A stretch of 64,000 nt of DNA from the NCBI RefSeq assembly GCF_017348835.2, contig NZ_CP071375.1; one strand, 5' to 3'. This document shows positions 4,224-57,879 of the stretch, piece by piece. Source of the DNA: Escherichia coli. Lineage in GTDB: Bacteria; Pseudomonadota; Gammaproteobacteria; Enterobacterales; Enterobacteriaceae. How positions within the stretch are numbered: position 1 is the stretch's first letter; every line of letters begins with the position of its first letter. The notes beneath the pieces were generated by a model. That model was not told where the DNA came from and ran no database searches. It saw only the letters and a program-made list of their open reading frames with translations. The position numbers and the translations under genes were made by a program.

Positions 4224-4718
4224 TTACTCGCTAACGGTCACGCTTTCAATGATAACGTCTTCTTTTGGCACGTCCTGGTGCATACCGCTACGACCGGTTG
4301 CAACACCTTTGATTTTGTCTACCACGTCCATGCCTTCAACCACTTCAGCAAACACGCAGTAGCCCCAACCTTGCAGGCTTTCGCCAGAGAAGTTCAGGAA
4401 GTCGTTATCAACCACGTTGATGAAGAACTGTGCAGTTGCAGAGTGCGGAGCCTGAGTACGGGCCATTGCCAGCGTACCACGGGTATTTTTCAGGCCGTTG
4501 TTGGCTTCGTTTTTGATCGGTTCTTTGGTGGCTTTTTGTTTCATGCCCGGTTCAAAACCGCCGCCCTGAATCATAAAGCCGTTGATAACACGGTGGAAAA
4601 TGGTGTTGTTGTAAAAACCTTCGCGGCAGTAGTCCAGGAAGTTTTTAACTGTTTCAGGTGCTTTATCGTCAAAAGTTTTGATGACAATATCGCCGTGATT
4701 GGTGTGGAAAGTAACCAT
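4224..4718 (-). CDS. ppiB: peptidyl-prolyl cis-trans isomerase B (cyclophilin)
   Basis: 164-aa cyclophilin sequence ([27 protein letters not shown]...). Confidence 0.95.
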
Positions 4719-4891
4719 TTTTGCATCCTGTTCCGTTTGATTGGTGCTTCAACCCGGTTCGGGTCATATATAGGGTGGTGTTATAGCATAACCGCACGAT
4801 CGGATCATCACGCAATGTATGCTGATTCGCGCGGGAAATATGGGTATTATACGCAACTCAATTACCCACACATGTCTAAACGGAATCTTCG

Positions 4892-6277
4892 ATGCTAAAA
4901 ATCTTCAATACTCTGACACGCCAAAAAGAGGAATTTAAGCCTATTCACGCCGGGGAAGTCGGCATGTACGTGTGTGGAATCACCGTTTACGATCTCTGTC
5001 ATATCGGTCACGGGCGTACCTTTGTTGCTTTTGACGTGGTTGCGCGCTATCTGCGTTTCCTCGGCTATAAACTGAAGTATGTGCGCAACATTACCGATAT
5101 CGACGACAAAATCATCAAACGCGCCAATGAAAATGGCGAAAGCTTTGTGGCGCTGGTGGATCGCATGATCGCCGAAATGCACAAAGATTTTGATGCTTTG
5201 AACATTTTGCGCCCGGATATGGAGCCGCGCGCGACGCACCATATCGCAGAAATTATTGAACTCACTGAACAACTGATCGCCAAAGGTCACGCTTATGTGG
5301 CGGACAACGGCGACGTGATGTTCGACGTCCCGACCGATCCGACTTATGGCGTGCTGTCGCGCCAGGATCTCGACCAGCTGCAGGCAGGCGCGCGCGTTGA
5401 CGTGGTCGATGACAAACGCAACCCGATGGACTTCGTTCTGTGGAAGATGTCGAAAGAGGGCGAACCGAGCTGGCCGTCTCCGTGGGGCGCGGGCCGTCCT
5501 GGCTGGCACATTGAATGTTCGGCAATGAACTGCAAGCAGCTGGGTAACCACTTTGATATCCACGGCGGCGGTTCTGACCTGATGTTCCCACACCACGAAA
5601 ACGAAATCGCTCAGTCCACCTGTGCCCATGATGGTCAGTATGTGAACTACTGGATGCACTCCGGGATGGTGATGGTTGATCGCGAGAAGATGTCCAAATC
5701 GCTGGGTAACTTCTTCACCGTGCGTGATGTGCTGAAATACTACGACGCGGAAACCGTGCGTTACTTCCTGATGTCGGGACACTATCGCAGCCAGCTGAAC
5801 TACAGCGAAGAGAACCTGAAGCAGGCGCGTGCGGCGCTGGAGCGTCTCTACACTGCCCTGCGCGGCACAGACAAAACCGTTGCGCCTGCCGGTGGCGAAG
5901 CGTTTGAAGCGCGCTTTATTGAAGCGATGGACGACGATTTCAACACCCCGGAAGCCTATTCCGTACTGTTTGATATGGCGCGTGAAGTAAACCGTCTGAA
6001 AGCAGAAGATATGGCAGCGGCGAATGCAATGGCATCTCACCTGCGTAAACTTTCCGCTGTACTGGGCCTGCTGGAGCAAGAGCCGGAAGCGTTCCTGCAA
6101 AGCGGTGCGCAGGCAGACGACAGCGAAGTGGCTGAGATTGAAGCGTTAATTCAACAGCGTCTGGATGCCCGTAAAGCGAAAGACTGGGCGGCGGCAGATG
6201 CGGCGCGTGACCGTCTTAACGAGATGGGGATCGTGCTGGAAGATGGCCCGCAAGGGACCACCTGGCGTCGTAAGTAA
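4892..6277 (+). CDS. cysS: cysteine--tRNA ligase
   Basis: 461-aa class I aaRS with HIGH (CHIGHGR) and KMSKS motifs. Confidence 0.95.
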
Positions 6278-6288
6278 TTGCGCTGTTG

Positions 6289-6312
6289 CCGGATGCGAGT
6301 TTTCGCATCCGG
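6289..6312. terminator. hairpin between convergent cysS and ybcI (possible bidirectional terminator)
   Basis: Stem ccggatgcg / cgcatccgg with 6-nt loop, right after the cysS stop; no strong U-tract. Confidence 0.35.
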
Positions 6313-6834
6313 TTATCGCCTGCGCCACCACAATATTCCCATCAGCACCATCCCCGGCAACCACACCCACATCAATTCAGAAATAATCACCTGATGCCCG
6401 TACGGCGTGCTGTAACGAGACAATGCAAACGGCGCGACTTTGATCACCTGCCAGGGAGCGAAAAAGCGTTCATCTGACCACGGCCACAGCCAGCCAACGC
6501 CTTTACCGCCAGTGGTTACCGAATCCAGCAAGCTGTGCGATAGCAACGAGACGGTTAAAAACAGCCAGCAGCGAATCAGCCCAGCCCTGAACCATCGACG
6601 TCCAATCAGCACACATAACAGCGGGACAACAAACGCAAACACCAGCGAATGGGTAAACCCGCGATGACCAAAAACATTGCCGTAAGCAACGCCAAATTTA
6701 AACGACAATACGTCGGCATCGGGCAGCATCGCCAGGACGATTCCGGCAAATAACAGACGCGGCGGGATGATTATCGAACCCAACCCTAAACCAATGCATA
6801 GGGGAACGGCGGCGTGCGTAATAACGGTTGGCAT
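6313..6834 (-). CDS. ybcI: inner membrane protein, DUF457 family
   Basis: 173-aa hydrophobic ORF; position between cysS and ybcJ. Confidence 0.8.
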   Translation of the reverse strand: MPTVITHAAVPLCIGLGLGSIIIPPRLLFAGIVLAMLPDADVLSFKFGVAYGNVFGHRGFTHSLVFAFVVPLLCVLIGRRWFRAGLIRCWLFLTVSLLSHSLLDSVTTGGKGVGWLWPWSDERFFAPWQVIKVAPFALSRYSTPYGHQVIISELMWVWLPGMVLMGILWWRRR

Positions 6835-15010: not shown

Positions 15011-15087
15011 GCGCCCTTAGCTCAGTTGGATAGAGCAACGACCTTCTAAGTCGTGGGCCGCAGGTTCGAATCCTGCAGGGCGCGCCA
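15011..15087 (+). tRNA. argU: tRNA-Arg (anticodon UCU)
   Basis: 77-nt sequence gcgcccttagctcagttggatagagcaacgaccttctaagtcgtgggccgcaggttcgaatcctgcagggcgcgcca with TCT anticodon and GTTCGAATC T-loop. Confidence 0.95.
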
Positions 15088-15089
15088 TT
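15043..15089. repeat. attL core (3' part of argU)
   Basis: cttctaagtcgtgggccgcaggttcgaatcctgcagggcgcgcca(tt) is repeated exactly at 58302-58348. Confidence 0.8.
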
Positions 15090-50441: not shown

Positions 50442-53402
50442 ATGGCAGTAAAGATTTCAGGTGTACTGAAAGACGGCACAGGAAAACCGGTACAGAACTG
50501 CATAATCCAGCTGAAAGCAAAACGTAACAGCACCACGGTGGTGGTGAACACGCTGGCCTCAGAAAATCCGGATGAAGCCGGGCGTTACAGCATGGACGTT
50601 GAGTACGGTCAGTACAGCGTTATTCTGTTGGTGGAGGGATTCCCGCCGTCACATGCCGGGACCATCACCGTGTATGAAGATTCTCAACCCGGTACGCTGA
50701 ATGATTTTCTCGGTGCCATGACGGAGGATGATGCCCGTCCGGAGGCACTGCGTCGTTTTGAACTGATGGTGGAAGAGGTGGCGCGTAACGCGTCCGTGGT
50801 GGCACAGAACACGGCAGCCGCAAAGAAGTCAGCCAGTGATGCCAGCACATCTGCCAGTGAGGCGGCAACCCGTGCGACTGATGCTGCAGATTCAGCACGT
50901 GCAGCCAGCACGTCAGCCGGACAGGCCGCGTCGTCGGCTCAGTCAGCGTCTTCCAGCGCAGGAACGGCATCAGCAAAAGCCTCTGAGGCATCAAAAAGTG
51001 CTGCCGCTGCAGAGTCCTCAAAAAGCGCGGCGGCTACCAGTGCCGGTGCGGCGAAAACGTCAGAAACGAATGCGGCAGCGTCAGAACAATCAGCCGCCAC
51101 TTCTGCATCCACCGCGACCACGAAAGCGTCAGAAGCTGCCACCTCAGCCCGGGATGCGGCGGCCTCAAAAGAGGCGGCAAAATCATCAGAAACGAGCGCA
51201 GCCTCGAGCGCCAGTAATGCCGCTTCCTCGGCAACGGCGGCAGGAAATTCCGCGAAGGCGGCAAAGACGTCTGAGACAAACGCTAAGTCCTCTGAAACGG
51301 CAGCAGCACAGAGTGCCTCCGCAGGCGCAGACTCAAAAACAGCGGCTGCATCATCTGCCAGCGCCGCGTCAACAAGTGCCGGGCAGGCCTCAGCCAGTGC
51401 CACCGCTGCCGGAAAGTCGGCAGAAAGTGCCGCATCGTCTGCTTCAACAGCCACAACGAAGGCTGGCGAAGCCACTGAACAGGCCAGCGCAGCAGCGAGT
51501 TCTGCTTCCGCAGCGAAGACATCCGAAACGAACGCGAAAGCGTCGGAAACCAGCGCAGAATCCTCAAAAACTGCTGCCGCATCGTCAGCCAGTTCGGCGG
51601 CGTCATCGGCATCATCTGCGTCTGCTTCAAAAGATGAGGCGACCAGACAAGCGTCAGCAGCGAAGAGCAGCGCCACGACGGCATCCACGAAGGCGACAGA
51701 GGCAGCTGGCAGTGCGACGGCGGCAGCTCAGAGCAAAAGTACGGCGGAATCCGCGGCAACGCGCGCCGAGACAGCGGCAAAACGGGCAGAGGATATTGCA
51801 TCCGCCGTGGCGCTTGAAGATGCGAGCACGACGAAAAAGGGGATAGTACAGCTCAGCAGTGCGACTAACAGCACTTCCGAGTCACTGGCGGCAACGCCAA
51901 AAGCAGTTAAGTCCGCGTATGACCTGGCTAACGGGAAATACACCGCACAGGATGCAACGACAGCACAGAAAGGGATAGTTCAGCTCAGCAGCGCGACCAA
52001 CAGCACATCTGAAATGCTGGCGGCAACGCCAAAGTCGGTAAAGGCAGCCTATGACCTTGCTAACGGGAAATATACCGCTCAGGACGCTACGACAGCACAA
52101 AAAGGAATTATCCAGCTCAGTAGTGCAACCAACAGCGCATCTGAAACGCTTGCCGCGACACCGAAAGCAGTGAAAGCAGCTAATGATAATGCGAATGGTC
52201 GGGTACCTTCTGCCCGTAAGGTGAATGGTAAGGCGCTTTCAGCGGATATAACACTGACGCCGAAAGATATTGGTACGCTTAACTCAACAACAATGTCATT
52301 CAGCGGTGGTGCTGGTTGGTTCAAATTAGCAACGGTAACCATGCCACAGGCGAGTTCTGTTGTTTCAATTACGTTGATTGGTGGCGCGGGATTTAACGTG
52401 GGGTCACCTCAACAGGCAGGTATATCTGAACTTGTTTTGCGTGCAGGTAATGGTAATCCGAAGGGGATTACTGGTGCTTTATGGCAGCGCACATCGACAG
52501 GGTTTACAAATTTTGCCTGGGTCAATACATCTGGTGATACTTACGATATTTACGTTGCAATCGGAAATTATGCGACTGGTGTAAATATTCAATGGGATTA
52601 TACCAGTAATGCCAGCGTGACTATTCATACGTCACCAGCATATTCTGCTAATAAGCCGGAAGGGTTAACGGACGGTACAGTTTATTCACTCTATACGCCA
52701 TCAGAGCAGTTTTATCCGCCTGGCGCACCAATCCCGTGGCCATCAGATACCGTTCCGTCTGGTTATGCCCTGATGCAGGGGCAGACTTTTGACAAATCTG
52801 CATACCCGAAACTTGCAGCCGCTTATCCGTCAGGCGTGATCCCTGATATGCGTGGCTGGACGATTAAGGGCAAACCCGCCAGTGGTCGTGCCGTATTGTC
52901 TCAGGAACAGGACGGCATTAAATCGCACACCCACAGCGCCAGCGCATCCAGTACGGATTTGGGGACGAAAACCACATCGTCGTTTGATTACGGCACTAAA
53001 TCCACGAATAACACCGGGGCTCATACGCACAGTCTGAGCGGCTCTACAAGCTCGGCCGGAGCACACTCGCACGTTGATGGTCGCAGGTTTAATACAAGCA
53101 CTTTTAAAGACACCTATCAGTATGGTTCTACAGCTGTCGGAAGTAACTCATACCAGGTACAAGGGGCGGTTGGTCTGGGCATTGGCACGATGGCGAATAC
53201 GAACTCTGCTGGCGCGCATACCCACTCACTGTCCGGCACTGCTGCAAGCGCAGGTGCACACGCACATACTGTCGGTATTGGTGCTCATACGCACTCCGTT
53301 GCGATTGGCTCACATGGACACACCATCACCGTTAACGCTGCTGGTAACGCGGAAAACACCGTCAAAAACATCGCATTTAACTATATTGTGAGGCTTGCAT
53401 AA
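50442..53402 (+). CDS. stf: side tail fibre protein (Stf)
   Basis: 986-aa; conserved N-terminus, long Ala/Ser-rich low-complexity region, three tandem 40-aa repeats, C-terminal HxH repeats. Confidence 0.85.
51835..52194 (+). repeat. 3 x 120-nt tandem in-frame repeats within stf
   Basis: Repeat protein unit [15 protein letters not shown](S/M)LAATPK(A/S)VK(S/A)[18 protein letters not shown]. Confidence 0.7.
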
Positions 53403-53986
53403 TGGCATTCAGAATGAGTGAACAAGCACGGACCATAAAAATTTATAATCTGCTGGCCGGAACTAATGAATTTATTGGTGAAGGTGATGCATATATTCCG
53501 CCTCATACAGGTCTGCCAGCAAACAGTACCGATATTGCACCACCAGATATTCCTGCTGGCTTTGTGGCTGTTTTCAACAGTGATGAGGCATCGTGGCATC
53601 TCGTTGAAGACCATCTGGGTAAAACGGTTTATGACGTAGCGTCAGGGGACGAGTTATTTATTTCTGAACTCGGTCCGTTACCGGAAAATGTTACCTGGTT
53701 ATCGCCGGAAGGGGAGTTTCAGAAGTGGAACGGCACAGCCTGGGTGAAAGATGCAGAAGCAGAAAAACTGTTCCGGATCCGAGAGGCGGAAGAAATAAAA
53801 AACAGCCTGATGCAGGTAGCCAGTGAGCATATTGCGCCACTTCAGGATGCTGTAGATCTGGAAATCGCAACGGAGGAAGAAACCTCATTGTTGGAAGCCT
53901 GGAAAAAGTATCGGGTGTTGCTGAACCGTGTTGATACATCAACTGCACCTGATATTGAGTGGCCTACGAATCCTGTCAGGGAGTAA
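53402..53986 (+). CDS. tfa: tail fibre assembly protein (Tfa)
   Basis: 194-aa, start overlaps the stf stop. Confidence 0.85.
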
Positions 53987-54040
53987 TCATTGGGATTATG
54001 CCGCAGCACGTCTTAAGCAAGAACGTGCTGCGGTTGGATG

Positions 54041-54709
54041 CTATTTTTTCCCTGAAGCGGAAAACATTACTACAGTACCTTGAACCTTGGTTTTAACATT
54101 CTCGAAATGCTCTGAGAGTATATGTGTTAAGCCTTCTTCGGAATCTTTTGTGTTTGAAAAGATGCCTTTCTGATTGTAAATGCGCATCAGTTTTTGACCG
54201 AAGCTATTGTGCACAACTCCATCGCCAAGAATTGTGGCTCCGTATAGAGTTCCATCGTCAGTTAAGGCCTGCGCCGCATTGCGTATTACACAGCTTTTTG
54301 TAGATATATTTCCAGGCAGGCAGTGAAGAAGGTAAAACATGGAAATGGAATCAAATTGACCATGTAACGCCGCGGGATAAGGTTCAAAAACATCATGGCT
54401 AATTTTATGTTTAATTTTTGATTCCCCAGCCCTTGTAGATGCCGCGTTCAGGCTAGCTTCGTTCAAATCCATTAAAGATATCAGACTACTCTCAGGTACG
54501 TGAGTAAGGTAAAACCCAGTTCCAACACCAATATCCAGATGGTTGTTACCTAAATGTTCCAGAAAGTGTGGAAGAAGGTGTTCCTTTGTAGGACATCCCC
54601 ATGCAAGCCGATTTGATACTCCCAAAACCCACCAGTCATAAAGCTTTAGGGTAAGTGGTGTGTAAATTTTAGCCCCATCATCTGTGTTTTTTTTCATTAA
54701 TTTCACCAT
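54041..54709 (-). CDS. class I SAM-dependent methyltransferase (YbcY-like)
   Basis: 222-aa; LDIGVGTGF SAM-binding motif I; convergent with tfa. Confidence 0.65.
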   Translation of the reverse strand: MVKLMKKNTDDGAKIYTPLTLKLYDWWVLGVSNRLAWGCPTKEHLLPHFLEHLGNNHLDIGVGTGFYLTHVPESSLISLMDLNEASLNAASTRAGESKIKHKISHDVFEPYPAALHGQFDSISMFYLLHCLPGNISTKSCVIRNAAQALTDDGTLYGATILGDGVVHNSFGQKLMRIYNQKGIFSNTKDSEEGLTHILSEHFENVKTKVQGTVVMFSASGKK

Positions 54710-54765
54710 GTTATAGTTTTATTTGTGAATTAAATCAATTATGGCGATGAATTACAAGGGGTTAA

Positions 54766-55071
54766 ATGCTGCCGCAGCATAGCGATATTGAAATAGCCTG
54801 GTATGCTTCGATACAACAGGAGCCGAATGGCTGGAAGACCGTCACCACACAGTTCTACATCCAGGAATTCAGTGAGTATATTGCGCCACTGCAGGATGCT
54901 GTAGATCTGGAAATCGCAACGGAGGAAGAAAGATCGTTGCTGGAGGCATGGAATAAATATCGGGTATTGTTGAATCGAGTTGATACATCAGTAGCTCTGG
55001 GTATGAAGCTGTTTGTAACTCATGTTACAGTAACAGTCATTACTATCTCGAAGGTGCAAAATGTATATTGA
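54766..55071 (+). pseudogene. tail fibre assembly gene remnant (tfaX-like)
   Basis: 101-aa ORF whose residues 39-75 repeat the C-terminal Tfa segment [35 protein letters not shown], then diverges. Confidence 0.6.
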
Positions 55072-55254
55072 TTTGATATTTTATAAATTTACTTCGAATC
55101 TGGCACGTCAACTTTTGATTAAAGTAATATCAGTTTTCGGCGAAAAAAGGACCGTGTACATGAGACGATTTCATACAATAATAACAAAAATATGAATATG
55201 CTCCCAATGCAATATATGTTTTGCATTGGGAGCAAATAGCGGAATATTTTGAAA

Positions 55255-56739
55255 TTATTGTATTTCTGCTTCAGAATTTCCTGGGCAGTATATATTTTCT
55301 ATTTTTTGTGGAGTGATCAGGTGATGTACAACTGCTTTATCTACACATAAATTAACTCCGGTGAGAGCTAATGTATGCCCATCACCATTTATTGTTAGTA
55401 ACGGGCTGGAAAATTTCTCTGCCATCTTACGGGCATTAATCCAGGGCGTTGTTGGGTCGTATTTGTGTGCTATAAACAGTAAACCAGAGGGCAGAACAGT
55501 ATTTTTCAGGCGAGTTTTGTTCAGGTCGCTATGTATTGGCCATAATTCACAAAAATCAGGTGAATCGGAACGTCCATTGTCAAAGTTAATAGCCGGGAAG
55601 GCATTCGCAAGAGCGTCTTTTCGGGATTTTCGCTCTTCTGGTGTTAATTGCTCATCCCCCTGATCTACACAGAGGATTACCCCCGAAGCATCGCTTGACT
55701 CTTCTGAGGCTATCGGAGCACTGAGCGCAGTTTCAATTTCATTACTGACAATCCCCTGAGAGAACTGGCGTATGGCAGTTGCAAGGGTTGGCCATGATGA
55801 ACGCCATAGCAGAAGGTCTGTTGTTAATGATATGAGTTCATCTGAAGATATATTTTCTCTCTTACTGTCTAATAAAGGTTTGTGATGTAATTTTGATAAT
55901 AGCTCATGGAACTGAGTTATTGCCTTATCTCTGTCTGAAGAAAGCGGGCAACTTTTTGTACGCGCACACCAGGATGCAAAGCGATCAAACGTTTCCTGAT
56001 AACTCTGTGCCTGTTTGAGTTGCCATGTGAAGTTGTCCTCCAGGTCATCGATATCGACGACTCCATCAAGAACGATAGATCTTACGTTGTAGGGAAAACG
56101 TTCTGCATATAAGGCTGCAATTTGAGTTCCATACGAATACGCCACGGCTGTCAGTTGTTTATCCCCCAAGGCTTGCCTAATACGATCAATATCGTATACA
56201 GCCTCGTTAGAGCCGATATGGCGAATGACTTCGGCTCCGGTATTATGGATACAGGCATTAATTTTATTTAATACTTGTTGCTTTTCGGTTATGTTTTCCT
56301 GAGTCTCTGTATCTGATTGCCGGCAGTTTATTGTCGGAGTGGACTGTCCGACGCCTCGAGGATCAAATCCAATAATATCCCATGACTCACGAAGATTTGT
56401 GACTGGCCAGTCAAAGTTAATATAAGGATTTATGCCTGGTAACCCGGGACCACCACTTATTATCAGGATACTTCCTTTATGCTTGCTTTTTGCCGGCAAT
56501 TTTGTCAACGCTAGTTTGACTTGTGATTTTTTTTCATAAGAAGCATCTCCGCCTGTGTCTGTATATTTTAATGGAACAGACAAATAACCACATAGTAAGT
56601 CAGGAGACGGTTTTTCCTCACCAAACCAGTGGTTGAATTGACTGGCCATACAGGATTGCCACTGTATCTGCTGGGCAGATACGGTTACTGGTAGAAGTAA
56701 CGTTAAAACAACTTTGAAATGAGTAATTATTTTTCGCAT
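55255..56739 (-). CDS. secreted alpha/beta-hydrolase-fold protein, probably S33-type peptidase/esterase
   Basis: 494-aa; signal-peptide-like N-terminus (MRKIITHFKVVLTLLLPVTVSAQQ), GGPG segment, nucleophile-elbow-like AYSYG; AT-rich; hairpin ctcccaatgca...tgcattgggag downstream. Confidence 0.65.
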   Translation of the reverse strand: MRKIITHFKVVLTLLLPVTVSAQQIQWQSCMASQFNHWFGEEKPSPDLLCGYLSVPLKYTDTGGDASYEKKSQVKLALTKLPAKSKHKGSILIISGGPGLPGINPYINFDWPVTNLRESWDIIGFDPRGVGQSTPTINCRQSDTETQENITEKQQVLNKINACIHNTGAEVIRHIGSNEAVYDIDRIRQALGDKQLTAVAYSYGTQIAALYAERFPYNVRSIVLDGVVDIDDLEDNFTWQLKQAQSYQETFDRFASWCARTKSCPLSSDRDKAITQFHELLSKLHHKPLLDSKRENISSDELISLTTDLLLWRSSWPTLATAIRQFSQGIVSNEIETALSAPIASEESSDASGVILCVDQGDEQLTPEERKSRKDALANAFPAINFDNGRSDSPDFCELWPIHSDLNKTRLKNTVLPSGLLFIAHKYDPTTPWINARKMAEKFSSPLLTINGDGHTLALTGVNLCVDKAVVHHLITPQKIENIYCPGNSEAEIQ

Positions 56740-56925: not shown

Positions 56926-57879
56926 TTAAAAGGTGTACTTAAGACCAGCAGTAGTGATGAAGTTATAGTTTTCTATGCCTGCACCATTTTTGCTGTAGTC
57001 TGAAGTGTTATCATTGTGATCATAAAGTGAAGTATTACCTTTTTTATTCGTAACCCGATTCCATGCGCCTTCAACATAAACTTTTGCGTTAGGTGTTACG
57101 TAATAACCTGCATTGACTGCAACAGAATAGTAATTTTGGTCTTTGACTTTACTGCGATAAGTGATTCTTTTTCCTGGGTCATAGTGCTCATCGTTATCAG
57201 ATGCTTCCACCCAGCCGCTGTATTTAAATGTGCCACCTAGCTCAAAATCTTCATAACGATAACTTCCAGTCAAGCCAATGTAGGGCATTTTAAAACGTTG
57301 TTTGTAGCCGATTGCTCTTTCTCCATTCGGGAAGGAGCCGATATCATCTCTGAATCCCTCCTCAGAACTGTAGATATAGGAACCACCTCTGGCTGTAAAG
57401 CTATAACGGCTTTCCTGATATCCGGCCATGAGTCCCAGGCGGTAATTGGGTTCGTTGAGGAGCCAGCCTTTGATATTCAGATCAAATTCGTTGGCATAAT
57501 TGAGTTGTGTATCAGGGTGCCTACTTTCATCTGTCCAGGTTCCGGGGTTACTGGAATCCATCCAGTCCTGATCGACCATATTGCCACCTCGGCTGCCGAG
57601 AGTAGTCCAGCCCGCAGCCCCAATAGATATCTGGGGCATCAAATCCCAATTAATTGCACCTTTAATAATTGCAGCGTTATTGAATTTCCAGTCGAGTTGA
57701 CTGACTTTTCGGCCTCCTTCTTCAGCTAGATAAACGCGCTCTTTTGTTTTTCCGCTCAGAGTTCCAAGACTAATGTCCGCATTTATGTTGTCAGGAGTAA
57801 ACGATATAGTCTCGGTAGAAGCAAAAGAGCTGATCGCAATAGGGGTTGTCAGAACTATTCCCAGAAGTTTCGCCCGCAT
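56926..57879 (-). CDS. ompT: omptin outer membrane protease
   Basis: 317-aa matching E. coli OmpT as recalled (MRAKLLGIVLTTPIAISSFA ... TAGLKYTF). Confidence 0.95.
   Translation of the reverse strand: MRAKLLGIVLTTPIAISSFASTETISFTPDNINADISLGTLSGKTKERVYLAEEGGRKVSQLDWKFNNAAIIKGAINWDLMPQISIGAAGWTTLGSRGGNMVDQDWMDSSNPGTWTDESRHPDTQLNYANEFDLNIKGWLLNEPNYRLGLMAGYQESRYSFTARGGSYIYSSEEGFRDDIGSFPNGERAIGYKQRFKMPYIGLTGSYRYEDFELGGTFKYSGWVEASDNDEHYDPGKRITYRSKVKDQNYYSVAVNAGYYVTPNAKVYVEGAWNRVTNKKGNTSLYDHNDNTSDYSKNGAGIENYNFITTAGLKYTF

Follow-up and report, generated by a model that had tools for sequence, protein, structure and literature searches.

The short tfaX reading frame in the right arm of a lambdoid Escherichia coli prophage is probably a scar left when two lambdoid genomes recombined out of register. 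The arrangement in which it lies, tfa-ybcY-tfaX, is ordinary and already known: it is the intact form of the pseudogene layout tfaD'-ybcY'-tfaX' of the DLP12 prophage of E. coli K-12. The window analyzed here is a 64,000-nucleotide stretch of E. coli contig NZ_CP071375.1.

The window contains a complete lambda-like prophage integrated in the tRNA-Arg gene argU (15011–15087). The left attachment site (attL, 15043–15089, plus strand) is a 47-nt core that corresponds to the 3' part of tRNA-Arg(TCT) argU, the DLP12 integration site, and is exactly repeated at the right end of the prophage (attR, 58302–58348, plus strand); homology to the free phages ev243 and PhiR26_1 stops at 58348–58352. The att core was also sought near tfaX, where the segment 54700–55400 shares no 11-mer with the argU region.

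The plus strand encodes the side tail fibre protein Stf (50442–53402, 986 aa), an ORF annotated as "prophage tail fiber N-terminal domain-containing protein" in the identical strain PE164 and as "side tail fiber protein" in PhiR26_1, followed by the intact tail fibre assembly gene tfa (53402–53986, plus strand, 194 aa), with ~91% nucleotide identity to lambda orf-194. The encoded Tfa is a full-length member of its family (lambda Tfa / Mu U; Pfam PF02413) and matches PHROG 105 over residues 1–192 (E = 1e-98). Downstream of tfa, there is a GC-rich hairpin followed by a T-rich tract (54000–54034, plus strand); an 81-nt RNA containing the hairpin stem (53980–54060) folds at -30.7 kcal/mol (z = -3.5). 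In all related loci, the ybcY block begins on its left with this hairpin, which is found in every left-context class. Beyond ybcY and tfaX comes a junction segment (54991–55254), in which the AT-rich 3' flank of a hydrolase gene stands in place of the natural last 14 tfa codons and which contains a terminator-like hairpin on the minus strand (55199–55234); most relatives part from the window exactly after 54990. The next two cargo genes, both on the minus strand, encode an alpha/beta hydrolase of 494 aa (55255–56739; ORF with annotation and profile matches) and, still within the prophage, the outer-membrane protease OmpT (56926–57879; ORF and annotation).

The free phages PhiR26_1, ev243 and 2G7b share the order stf/tfa – ybcY – tfaX – hydrolase – ompT – attP – int. 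OmpT and a hydrolase that is as yet uncharacterised are carried by inducible phages. Among 5426 complete E. coli genomes, 80% or more of 53400–55260 is present in at least 1128. Under the explanation that we consider the probable one, this region would be the prophage right arm, equivalent to the lambda "b region", where the stf-tfa-hairpin unit is followed by a leftward run of cargo genes, ybcY, hydrolase and ompT.

The initial annotation had reported that a piece of tfa at 53831–53941 recurs at 54880–54990 with ~85% identity. This observation is borne out: the 111-nt core has 13 mismatches (88% identity), and the complete direct repeat, delineated by repeat search and MAFFT, extends gap-free and in frame over 132 nt (53810–53941 and 54859–54990, both plus strand), with an identity that held up on alignment (114 of 132 positions, 86.4%). 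When copy 1 is compared with the whole window by blastn, copy 2 is retrieved with E = 3e-41 and all other matches have E > 0.4. Copy 1 comprises tfa codons 137–180, and copy 2, an internal tfa fragment covering approximately the same codons (~137–180), comprises tfaX codons 32–75, each in the frame of its own ORF. The two peptides are alike, SE(H/Y)...(T/R)SLLEAW(K/N)..., with H/Y, T/R and K/N as the variable residues. In most relatives, the repeat unit is 226 nt long and runs from tfa codon 137 through the stop codon and the hairpin, on to 54035.

As judged from these alignments, copy 2 comes from a tfa allele other than that of copy 1, and the divergence between them is allelic and mostly synonymous, with 10.5 synonymous and 7.5 non-synonymous differences (dN/dS 0.16, p = 0.0025). 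In the phage collection, the DNA identity of intact tfa genes to copy 2 does not exceed 88%, the best of them reaching 84–88%, and among the top 120 matches in a search of 5.8 billion proteins, there is no full-length protein with the copy-2 allele, only fragments of 50–105 aa. Given that no intact donor allele was found, purifying selection on tfaX itself could also account for the synonymous bias.

The tfaX ORF (54766–55071, plus strand, 101 aa) shows a chimeric make-up in profile comparisons. Its first 29 codons (54766–54852, plus strand) match the beginning of a small phage gene of PHROG 3893, which is 79 aa long when whole; these are joined in frame to tfa codons 137–180, and 24 unrelated residues follow. 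The profile matches cover TfaX residues 1–37 (PHROG 3893) and 29–77 (Tfa families, profile positions 145–193 of 239). Compared with a full-length Tfa, the N-terminal 136 residues are replaced by 29 PHROG-3893 residues and, in the window, the last 14 are missing. PGAP treats tfaX as a pseudogene ("tail fiber assembly protein, incomplete, missing N-terminus"), and the label "tail fiber assembly protein" that pipelines attach to it is wrong. The protein has its own family, PHROG 2341; no specific NCBIfam family is above the cut-off for Tfa, TfaX or YbcY.

The gene between the two copies, ybcY (54041–54709, minus strand), is indeed the 222-aa SAM-dependent methyltransferase gene on the opposite strand that had been noted previously, and it is no fragment: the ORF is uninterrupted, free of internal stops, and its product is identical to RefSeq WP_000239881.1, a "class I SAM-dependent methyltransferase". 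Because homologues and PHROG 2132 begin at Met5, the actual start is probably at 54697 (218 aa). YbcY matches the Pfam families Methyltransf_12/23/25/11 (Methyltransf_12 at E = 6e-9) and contains the glycine-rich SAM loop of motif I (LDIGVGTG, residues 58–65); its AlphaFold model (pLDDT 94.3) consists of alternating beta/alpha elements, in keeping with the seven-stranded Rossmann-like fold of this class, and is matched by Foldseek to many class I methyltransferases with probability 1.00. The nearest solved structures are phosphatidylethanolamine, phosphoethanolamine, juvenile-hormone-acid, NodS and natural-product methyltransferases, and all matches to solved structures, by sequence profile or by fold, are methyltransferases of small molecules, lipids, peptides or, in one case, rRNA.

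With regard to the target, DNA or a small molecule, these profile and fold matches point to the latter, and YbcY is a class I methyltransferase predicted to be of the small-molecule/lipid type; going by its structural neighbours, the methyl acceptor may be a lipid head-group, a carboxylate or a phenolic small molecule. A DNA methylase or a defence protein is rejected on the basis of the motifs, the PDB sequence profile, the fold search and PADLOC: as regards the DNA-methylase signature (D/N/S)PP(Y/F/W), the sequence contains no PP dipeptide, and PADLOC gave no meaningful match (best E = 0.003). Chromosomal homologues of YbcY with 56–70% identity are found in unrelated contexts in Enterobacter, Salmonella and other genera. 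Gene neighbourhood was considered as a source of functional clues, but since the neighbours are unrelated among the chromosomal homologues in Enterobacter, Salmonella, Citrobacter and E. coli, no function can be derived from it. YbcY itself is present in over a thousand sequenced E. coli.

On sequence grounds, ybcY is a moron, a cargo gene of a lambdoid phage. Its GC content is about 41% (0.37–0.45) vs 0.47–0.55 for stf/tfa; tfa occurs without ybcY in lambda, HK629/630, ev099, 2H10 and others, and HK225 carries dinI in the slot equivalent to that of ybcY. Between ybcY and tfaX lies a divergent promoter spacer (54710–54765), of which 54710–54759 is the upstream DNA of ybcY itself, conserved even in chromosomal homologues; those of Enterobacter and Citrobacter align through 54759 (blastn). 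A promoter-like site is located on the minus strand at 54765–54738, in a scan that gave no more sites than shuffled sequence. For K-12, a genomic SELEX study lists two divergent constitutive sigma-70 promoters, bound by H-NS, in the ybcY/tfaX spacer (PMC3946193). On the ybcY strand, the sequence has no T-run 3' of the hairpin, so that a terminator of its own is not evident for this gene.

In Citrobacter freundii, a full 79-aa PHROG-3893 gene is divergent from a 90%-identical ybcY, and the DNA in common with the window extends over 54029–54852 (91.6% identity). Phage Ayreon shares 54736–54852 and has undergone a secondary deletion of ybcY that retained 36 nt of the gene. Further enterobacterial siphophages, among them HK225 (tfa – dinI – gene – invertase – attP), likewise carry a member of the PHROG-3893 family in their b region. 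The PHROG-3893 gene is the natural divergent neighbour of ybcY. The earlier suggestion that the methyltransferase gene had been captured holds in the sense that ybcY is cargo at the lambdoid fibre end; the repeats did not capture it. Together with about 50 nt of its upstream DNA, ybcY was already located between the tfa terminator and the PHROG-3893 gene, as in the Citrobacter prophage and the Ayreon remnant.

We propose the following scenario for the origin of tfaX. The ybcY gene would have come from the chromosome of an enterobacterium, bringing along about 50 nt of its promoter region, and would have settled between the tfa terminator and the small rightward PHROG-3893 phage gene. An out-of-register illegitimate crossover would then have joined PHROG-3893 codon 29 in genome one to approximately tfa codon 137 in genome two, with genome one contributing stf-tfa-hairpin-ybcY and genome two the 3' end of tfa with its hairpin and all that follows. 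The cost of this founding crossover would have been a duplicated tfa 3' end of 132–226 nt, and the hybrid, having retained a complete fibre module, would have stayed viable. Subsequently, homologous recombination in or near copy 1 would swap the upstream fibre module and recombination in copy 2 would swap the downstream cargo and attachment module, and in the lineage of the window, a further illegitimate joint after the ...NRVDTS codons, at 54990, would have attached the hydrolase-ompT block. We infer the illegitimate nature of the founding joint; the order of the events we infer from present-day mosaics only.

A different route, which we consider unlikely, is that ybcY DNA entered a single genome by two staggered illegitimate joints, duplicating the tfa 3' end in situ; the copies would at first have been identical, and the functional copy 1 would later have been replaced repeatedly by other tfa alleles. 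A staggered insertion would give a repeat unit of the kind seen in most relatives, which spans the same 226 nt, copy 1 has clearly been replaced often, and there is a second, independent case, locus L029, where ybcY is flanked by a 297-nt, 97%-identical direct repeat composed of a gix site and the 5' end of pin, with an intact pin retained. The right joint, however, lies between the interrupted PHROG-3893 gene and tfa, not between ybcY DNA and tfa, which implies that the break occurred in phage DNA already downstream of ybcY. Moreover, the copy-2 allele differs by 12–15%, mostly synonymously, from every intact tfa sampled, so that duplication in situ would require the replacement of every functional copy.

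The distribution of joints among the relatives fits the crossover between two genomes followed by exchange. Many fibre modules join the same ybcY block inside copy 1, where homology to the window begins, leftward, at 53205, 53841, 53867, 53889 or 54001 depending on the locus class, and many downstream tails join inside copy 2, where at least five natural C-terminal tails occur (ANPVRE, EEPDTM, TSPAE, SQP and TGPIIE). In the commonest version of copy 2, the 3' 110 nt are identical to the end and hairpin of the intact tfa in strain NMBU-W13E19. These mosaic joints emerge from comparison of the loci, and in K-12, recombination at both copies has been shown directly: both tfa copies of DLP12 recombine with the lambda tfa 3' segment under lambda Red, with 7 of 12 recombinants of type I and 2 of 12 of type II (Poteete et al., 2004; PMC545071). 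Both copies now act as homology patches for module exchange. The earlier view of the repeat as a trace of tail-fibre recombination is upheld by the distinct allele of copy 2 and by the many joints in both copies among relatives.

Two further configurations were looked for. A clean product of a deletion between copy 1 and copy 2, with ybcY lost and a hybrid tfa, was not found in the 5426 genomes, the best match to a synthetic junction query being 95.7%; that best match, L095, is an ordinary tfa with only the last 110 nt in common with copy 2. An exact "empty site", in which tfa and its hairpin are followed by an intact PHROG-3893 gene without ybcY, was not recovered.

Cassette inversion, which had been suggested from the layout alone, is rejected for the window. 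The copies are direct, and the search for an invertase and for crossover sites in the window was negative: tblastn with the 201-aa Pin of L029 gave no match at E <= 1e-3, and the gix-like 26-mer of L029 has no match within 3 mismatches. The crossover core pattern AAACCNNGGTTT has 4 matches vs 2.2 expected, and the GAACCTTGGTTT match inside ybcY (54082–54093) is at chance level as a candidate crossover site. Inverted repeats in the window are weak and none is significant; nor are there two opposed sets of fibre tip and tfa, both tfa pieces being on the same strand with no second stf fragment.

Among the relatives, 16 of ~85 related loci (about 20%) have a truncated pin fused to the copy-1 remnant, beside an invertible fibre segment. 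It is conceivable in principle that the layout is the remnant of a Gin/Cin/Pin-type switch with alternating fibre-tip/tfa sets, later scrambled to a tfa fragment, but we regard this as extremely improbable. Invertible segments of this type (Mu G/Gin, P1 C/Cin, e14 P/Pin, p15B Min) likewise have duplicated tfa-family genes ending the fibre operon; the 16 relatives with the same ybcY block carry the truncated pin at the edge of a [Sv U U' Sv'] segment that occurs in both orientations, L029 has gix-like sites TTCCTGTAAACCGAGGTTTTAGATAA, and in HK225 the invertase is just downstream of the PHROG-3893 gene. Unlike these systems, the window has direct copies, no invertase, no crossover site within 3 mismatches, no significant inverted repeats, no alternative fibre tip and no stf fragment accompanying copy 2. 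Furthermore, the lambda-type tfa remnant of the pin loci was joined to pin separately, at 53889, outside the invertible segment.

In the proposed scenario, tfaX is most likely a non-functional chimeric ORF. The opposite reading, that it encodes a functional chimera of 88–101 aa that includes the conserved C-terminal Tfa segment and has its own lysogen promoter, kept for an effect on fibre assembly or on competing phages, would draw on the in-frame fusion, on an ORF that is open in about 63 of the 72 loci long enough to judge, on the existence of a separate protein family, on a tfa-derived part that differs from other alleles mainly synonymously and has no known intact donor, and on the upstream promoter assigned in K-12 (PMC3946193). 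Nevertheless, it appears highly unlikely. The loci are 97–99% similar, so that an open tfaX says little, and the frame has been broken by the independent lesions W12*, Q29* and W62* (two allele backgrounds) and by one frameshift, K-12 being among those affected. In the lineage of the window, the natural C-terminal 14 residues have been swapped for unrelated sequence, and the N-terminal part differs from that of Ayreon by radical changes.

Polymorphism is consistent with this assessment. Raw counts for tfaX are distorted by recombined blocks and one frameshift, and only isolated mutations were used; recent ones in tfaX number 7 synonymous vs 15 non-synonymous or stop (pN/pS about 0.57), compared with 15:13 in ybcY (pN/pS about 0.25), a difference that is suggestive of relaxed constraint on tfaX although not significant. 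A specific variant of the functional reading, in which TfaX would be made in lysogens from the H-NS-controlled promoter and act in trans where fibre assembly depends on Tfa, for instance by hampering how competing lambdoid phages assemble their side fibres, seems to us very doubtful; if true, the synonymous-biased divergence from known tfa alleles would reflect selection on TfaX itself.

Among known systems, the closest is DLP12 of K-12, in which tfaD' (ybcX) – ybcY' – tfaX' – appY – ompT occupy the argU site in the same gene order and orientation as in the window. DLP12 likewise has two tfa 3' homology patches around ybcY and is 97% identical in DNA over 53548–54995. In DLP12, each of the three genes is damaged, tfaD by loss of its N-terminus, ybcY by a frameshift and tfaX by an internal stop; the remainder of that prophage has decayed, and appY is found where the window has the alpha/beta hydrolase gene. 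The prophage of the window, by comparison, is complete, with intact tfa and ybcY genes and a copy 2 that breaks off at 54990. The layout has long been annotated in K-12, and a 2004 study described the tfa patches and demonstrated their recombination, so that it carries little weight as a discovery. Its value is that of a clean worked example of lambdoid genome assembly, with a cargo slot behind the fibre genes and a preserved, probably out-of-register joint that gave rise to a chimeric ORF; the duplicated patch then permits fibre modules to be shuffled on one side and, on the other, cargo/attachment modules, be it hydrolase-ompT, appY-ompT or different integration sites.

By its position and organization, ybcY resembles other morons. 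Morons, a concept said to go back to Hendrix, Juhala and colleagues, are cargo genes with transcription of their own, inserted between conserved phage genes; examples are lom, bor, sodC, dinI and the effector loci downstream of tail fibre genes. Like these, ybcY is a single gene opposite the late operon, with its own upstream DNA, lower GC content and variable presence, and it occupies the stretch behind the tail fibre genes and before attP that is classic for such cargo; unlike these, it has no clear intrinsic terminator on its strand.

The joints, in turn, correspond to the model attributed to Hendrix and Casjens, according to which lambdoid mosaic joints reportedly arise by illegitimate recombination, selection for function and homologous exchange at short conserved sequences, the "linker" sequences that Clark et al. 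are said to have described in 2001. As in that model, the joints are sharp and coincide with the borders of genes or domains, part of a gene remains duplicated at the joint, and many alternative modules meet at one conserved patch. What sets the present case apart is that the scar is unusually well preserved, widespread and forms an in-frame chimeric ORF.

A direct repeat of 132 nt, without gaps and with 114 of its 132 positions identical (86.4%), was found by repeat search and MAFFT alignment at 53810-53941 (copy 1) and 54859-54990 (copy 2), which confirms the repeated tfa segment claimed in the initial annotation, whose coordinates were right though slightly narrow. When copy 1 was compared with the 64-kb window using blastn, copy 2 was recovered at E=3e-41 and no further copy below E=0.4; the tfa repeat is real and non-random. 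Copy 1 corresponds, in frame, to codons 137-180 of tfa (53402-53986, 194 aa) and copy 2, also in frame, to codons 32-75 of the tfaX ORF (54766-55071, plus strand, 101 aa). The 222-aa methyltransferase gene that had been placed between them on the opposite strand is indeed there, as an uninterrupted ORF (ybcY, 54041-54709, minus strand) with Pfam methyltransferase domains.

Two kinds of PHROG family that are not related to each other are represented in the tfaX ORF: PHROG 3893 (79 aa, unknown function) is matched by residues 1-37, and Tfa families by residues 29-77. A remnant prophage of Citrobacter freundii, with a ybcY 90% identical to that of the window, shares with it exactly 54029-54852 (91.6% identity), and there the divergent neighbor of ybcY is a complete 79-aa gene, a full-length member of PHROG 3893. 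Such genes lie directly behind tail fiber genes in HK225 (in the order tfa, dinI on the minus strand, PHROG-3893 gene on the plus strand, invertase, attP), mEp390 and HK140, and also in Klebsiella, Erwinia and Cronobacter phages. In phage Ayreon (MF807953.1, 2270-2620), the 3' end of tfa is followed by the hairpin, by 36 nt from the 3' end of ybcY and by the equivalent of 54736-54852; ybcY is cleanly deleted (window 54077-54735), the 5' part of the PHROG-3893 gene is kept and copy 2 is absent. From these comparisons it follows that 54766-54852 represents the 5' end (29 codons) of a true phage gene, fused in frame at 54852/54853 to a tfa at about its codon 137. Most relatives keep the tfa-derived part up to its natural stop and through the conserved hairpin, which yields an ORF of 88-89 aa (PHROG 2341) and a repeat unit of 226 nt (53810-54035). 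In the lineage of the window, copy 2 ends after ...NRVDTS (54990), where it is joined to the AT-rich 3' flank of a hydrolase gene. Stranded tfa 3' fragments are very common prophage debris and not peculiar to the ybcY locus, given that in E. coli and Shigella 393 protein clusters (E<=1e-5) of 50-105-aa ORFs consist of the Tfa C-terminal segment only.

The behavior of the copies as recombination joints is apparent from 80 IMG/VR loci that encode YbcY (protein identity of 99% or more in each case). The stretch spanning the hairpin and ybcY up to 54990 is common to all compared loci, at 97-99% identity, and the attached flanks vary. On the left, homology to the window starts at 53205 in 30 loci with an intact lambda-type tfa, at 53889 in 16 loci with a truncated pin invertase gene fused to a tfa remnant, at 53867 in 21 loci with an ev243-type membrane-protein gene and at 53841 in 5 loci with another fused ORF; in 13 loci, only the hairpin is shared (from ~54001). 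On the right, copy 2 carries at least five kinds of natural Tfa tails (ANPVRE, EEPDTM, TSPAE, SQP and TGPIIE), and the DNA beyond each tail differs (e.g., potB in ATCC 25922). Over its final 110 nt, with the hairpin, the commonest form of copy 2 is identical to the end of an intact tfa from strain NMBU-W13E19, which places a crossover at about 54975-54990.

Of the cassette exchange or inversion proposed for this layout, the former is partly right, inasmuch as the copies are sites of recombination joints and module exchange, whereas an inversion origin is unsupported in the window: the copies are in direct orientation, there is neither an invertase nor a gix-like site (within three mismatches), and inverted repeats are at chance level. 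For relatives of this locus, the inversion idea is not baseless. In the 16 pin-class loci, which are lambdoid prophages (J-lom-stf N-terminus), an invertible Sv-U-U'-Sv' segment occurs in either orientation; after it come a gix-like site, pin truncated at about codon 67, the lambda-type tfa remnant, hairpin, ybcY and tfaX. In one related locus, L029 (UViG_2695420708_000013, 4500-6460), a 297-nt direct repeat (97% identical) flanks ybcY. Both of its copies contain the 5' end of pin together with a gix-like site (TTCCTGTAAACCGAGGTTTTAGATAA); one is part of the truncated pin by the invertible fiber segment and the other of an intact pin. These structures are further joints of the same kind, not evidence for an inversion origin of the repeat in the window. 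L029 also provides a second, independent case in which the cassette is bracketed by duplicated parts of the interrupted gene. Separately, in two IMG/VR loci (L080 and L081), the J C-terminus, lom and the stf N-terminus by truncated pin are in opposite orientation, suggesting an inversion much larger than the usual segment.

The 18 differences between the copies comprise 10.5 synonymous and 7.5 non-synonymous changes (Nei-Gojobori; dN/dS 0.16, synonymous excess p=0.0025), the latter mostly within the first six, poorly aligned codons. This substitution pattern is that of two alleles, each of them a functional gene during their divergence, rather than of one copy decaying in place. Identity of the copy-2 allele (Y...R...N) to the intact tfa genes of the phage collection is 84-88% in every case, and among its top 120 matches in 5.8 billion proteins the allele occurs only in 50-105-aa fragments; the donor is therefore unsampled. 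TfaX itself is probably non-functional: independent lesions (W12*, Q29*, W62* on two allele backgrounds and one frameshift) are found, and the natural Tfa C-terminus is lost in the lineage of the window. The ratio of synonymous to non-synonymous or stop changes among isolated recent mutations is 7:15 in tfaX vs 15:13 in ybcY, a difference that is not significant, and the loci are too alike for the open tfaX ORF to carry much weight. That TfaX is functional is very unlikely; we retain a small probability of selection on it because the donor of copy 2 is unsampled, the main gap in the argument. W62* (TGG to TGA at codon 62; loci L002/L041 and L011/L025) is present on both main copy-2 backgrounds, Y...R...N and H...N...K, and accordingly either arose twice or spread by recombination within copy 2.

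YbcY contains motif I (LDIGVGTG) and no DNA-methylase motifs, belongs to PHROG 2132, a family of no known function, and yields only sub-threshold NCBIfam matches and nothing meaningful with PADLOC. Its AlphaFold model (99 homologs, pLDDT 94.3) best matches, at TM-scores of 0.55-0.69, phosphatidylethanolamine N-methyltransferase, juvenile-hormone-acid methyltransferase, NodS, Plasmodium phosphoethanolamine methyltransferase and natural-product O-, C- and N-methyltransferases. There is no DNA methylase among these best matches. Throughout Enterobacterales, homologs sharing 56-70% identity reside on chromosomes, next to unrelated genes; ~50 nt upstream of ybcY (54710-54759) are conserved even with these; the GC content is ~41% compared to 47-55% in stf/tfa; and the K-12 ybcY/tfaX spacer is listed as an H-NS-bound divergent constitutive promoter pair (PMC3946193). 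Such features are characteristic of a moron that was acquired from a bacterial chromosome. As the Ayreon deletion shows, a plaque-forming phage can do without ybcY. The annotated start (ATG, 54709) is probably four codons too early: homologs are 218 aa long, PHROG 2132 aligns from Met5 (ATG at 54697), and a GGTGA sequence precedes the latter by 6 nt.

Most likely, an out-of-register joint between two lambdoid genomes, beside which the cargo methyltransferase already existed, left the tfa 3' duplication as a scar, and this scar has since served module exchange as a patch of homology.

The last 47 nt of the tRNA-Arg(TCT) gene argU (15011-15087) recur exactly at 58302-58348; these repeats are attL and attR of a ~43-kb lambda-like prophage in the DLP12 site, so that everything from stf through ompT is intra-prophage. 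Accordingly, ompT (56926-57879), which the inducible or free phages ev243 and PhiR26_1 also carry, is phage-borne cargo and not a chromosomal neighbor. Between tfaX and ompT, here and in active phages, lies a 494-aa alpha/beta hydrolase gene (55255-56739, minus strand), whose product matches the PADLOC candidate-defense model PDLC01094 (C3a206, TAP-like protein; E=3e-55) and PHROG 20134 (unknown function) and weakly resembles prolyl aminopeptidases. Within stf (at 50830-52210), there is a long low-complexity Ala/Ser/Thr-rich region with many short direct repeats, and there are also about three tandem 132-nt coding units (51819-51950, 51951-52082 and a third).

E. coli PE164 matches the window at 100%, and at least 80% of 53400-55260 is present in at least 1128 of 5426 complete E. 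coli genomes. The locus is the already known tfa-ybcY-tfaX arrangement of DLP12-type lambdoid prophages, and not a new one. Poteete et al. (PMC545071) detected by PCR Red-mediated recombinants at both DLP12 copies (7/12 and 2/12), so the duplication and its recombination activity are likewise in the literature. The gene order of the window, stf, tfa, ybcY (minus), tfaX (plus), hydrolase (minus), ompT (minus), attP and int, is that of the active phages PhiR26_1, PhiR30_1, PhiR29_1, ev243 and 2G7b, whereas DLP12 of K-12 is a decayed version, with a tfaD fragment, a frameshifted ybcY and a tfaX with an internal stop, followed by appY, in the slot of the hydrolase gene, and ompT.
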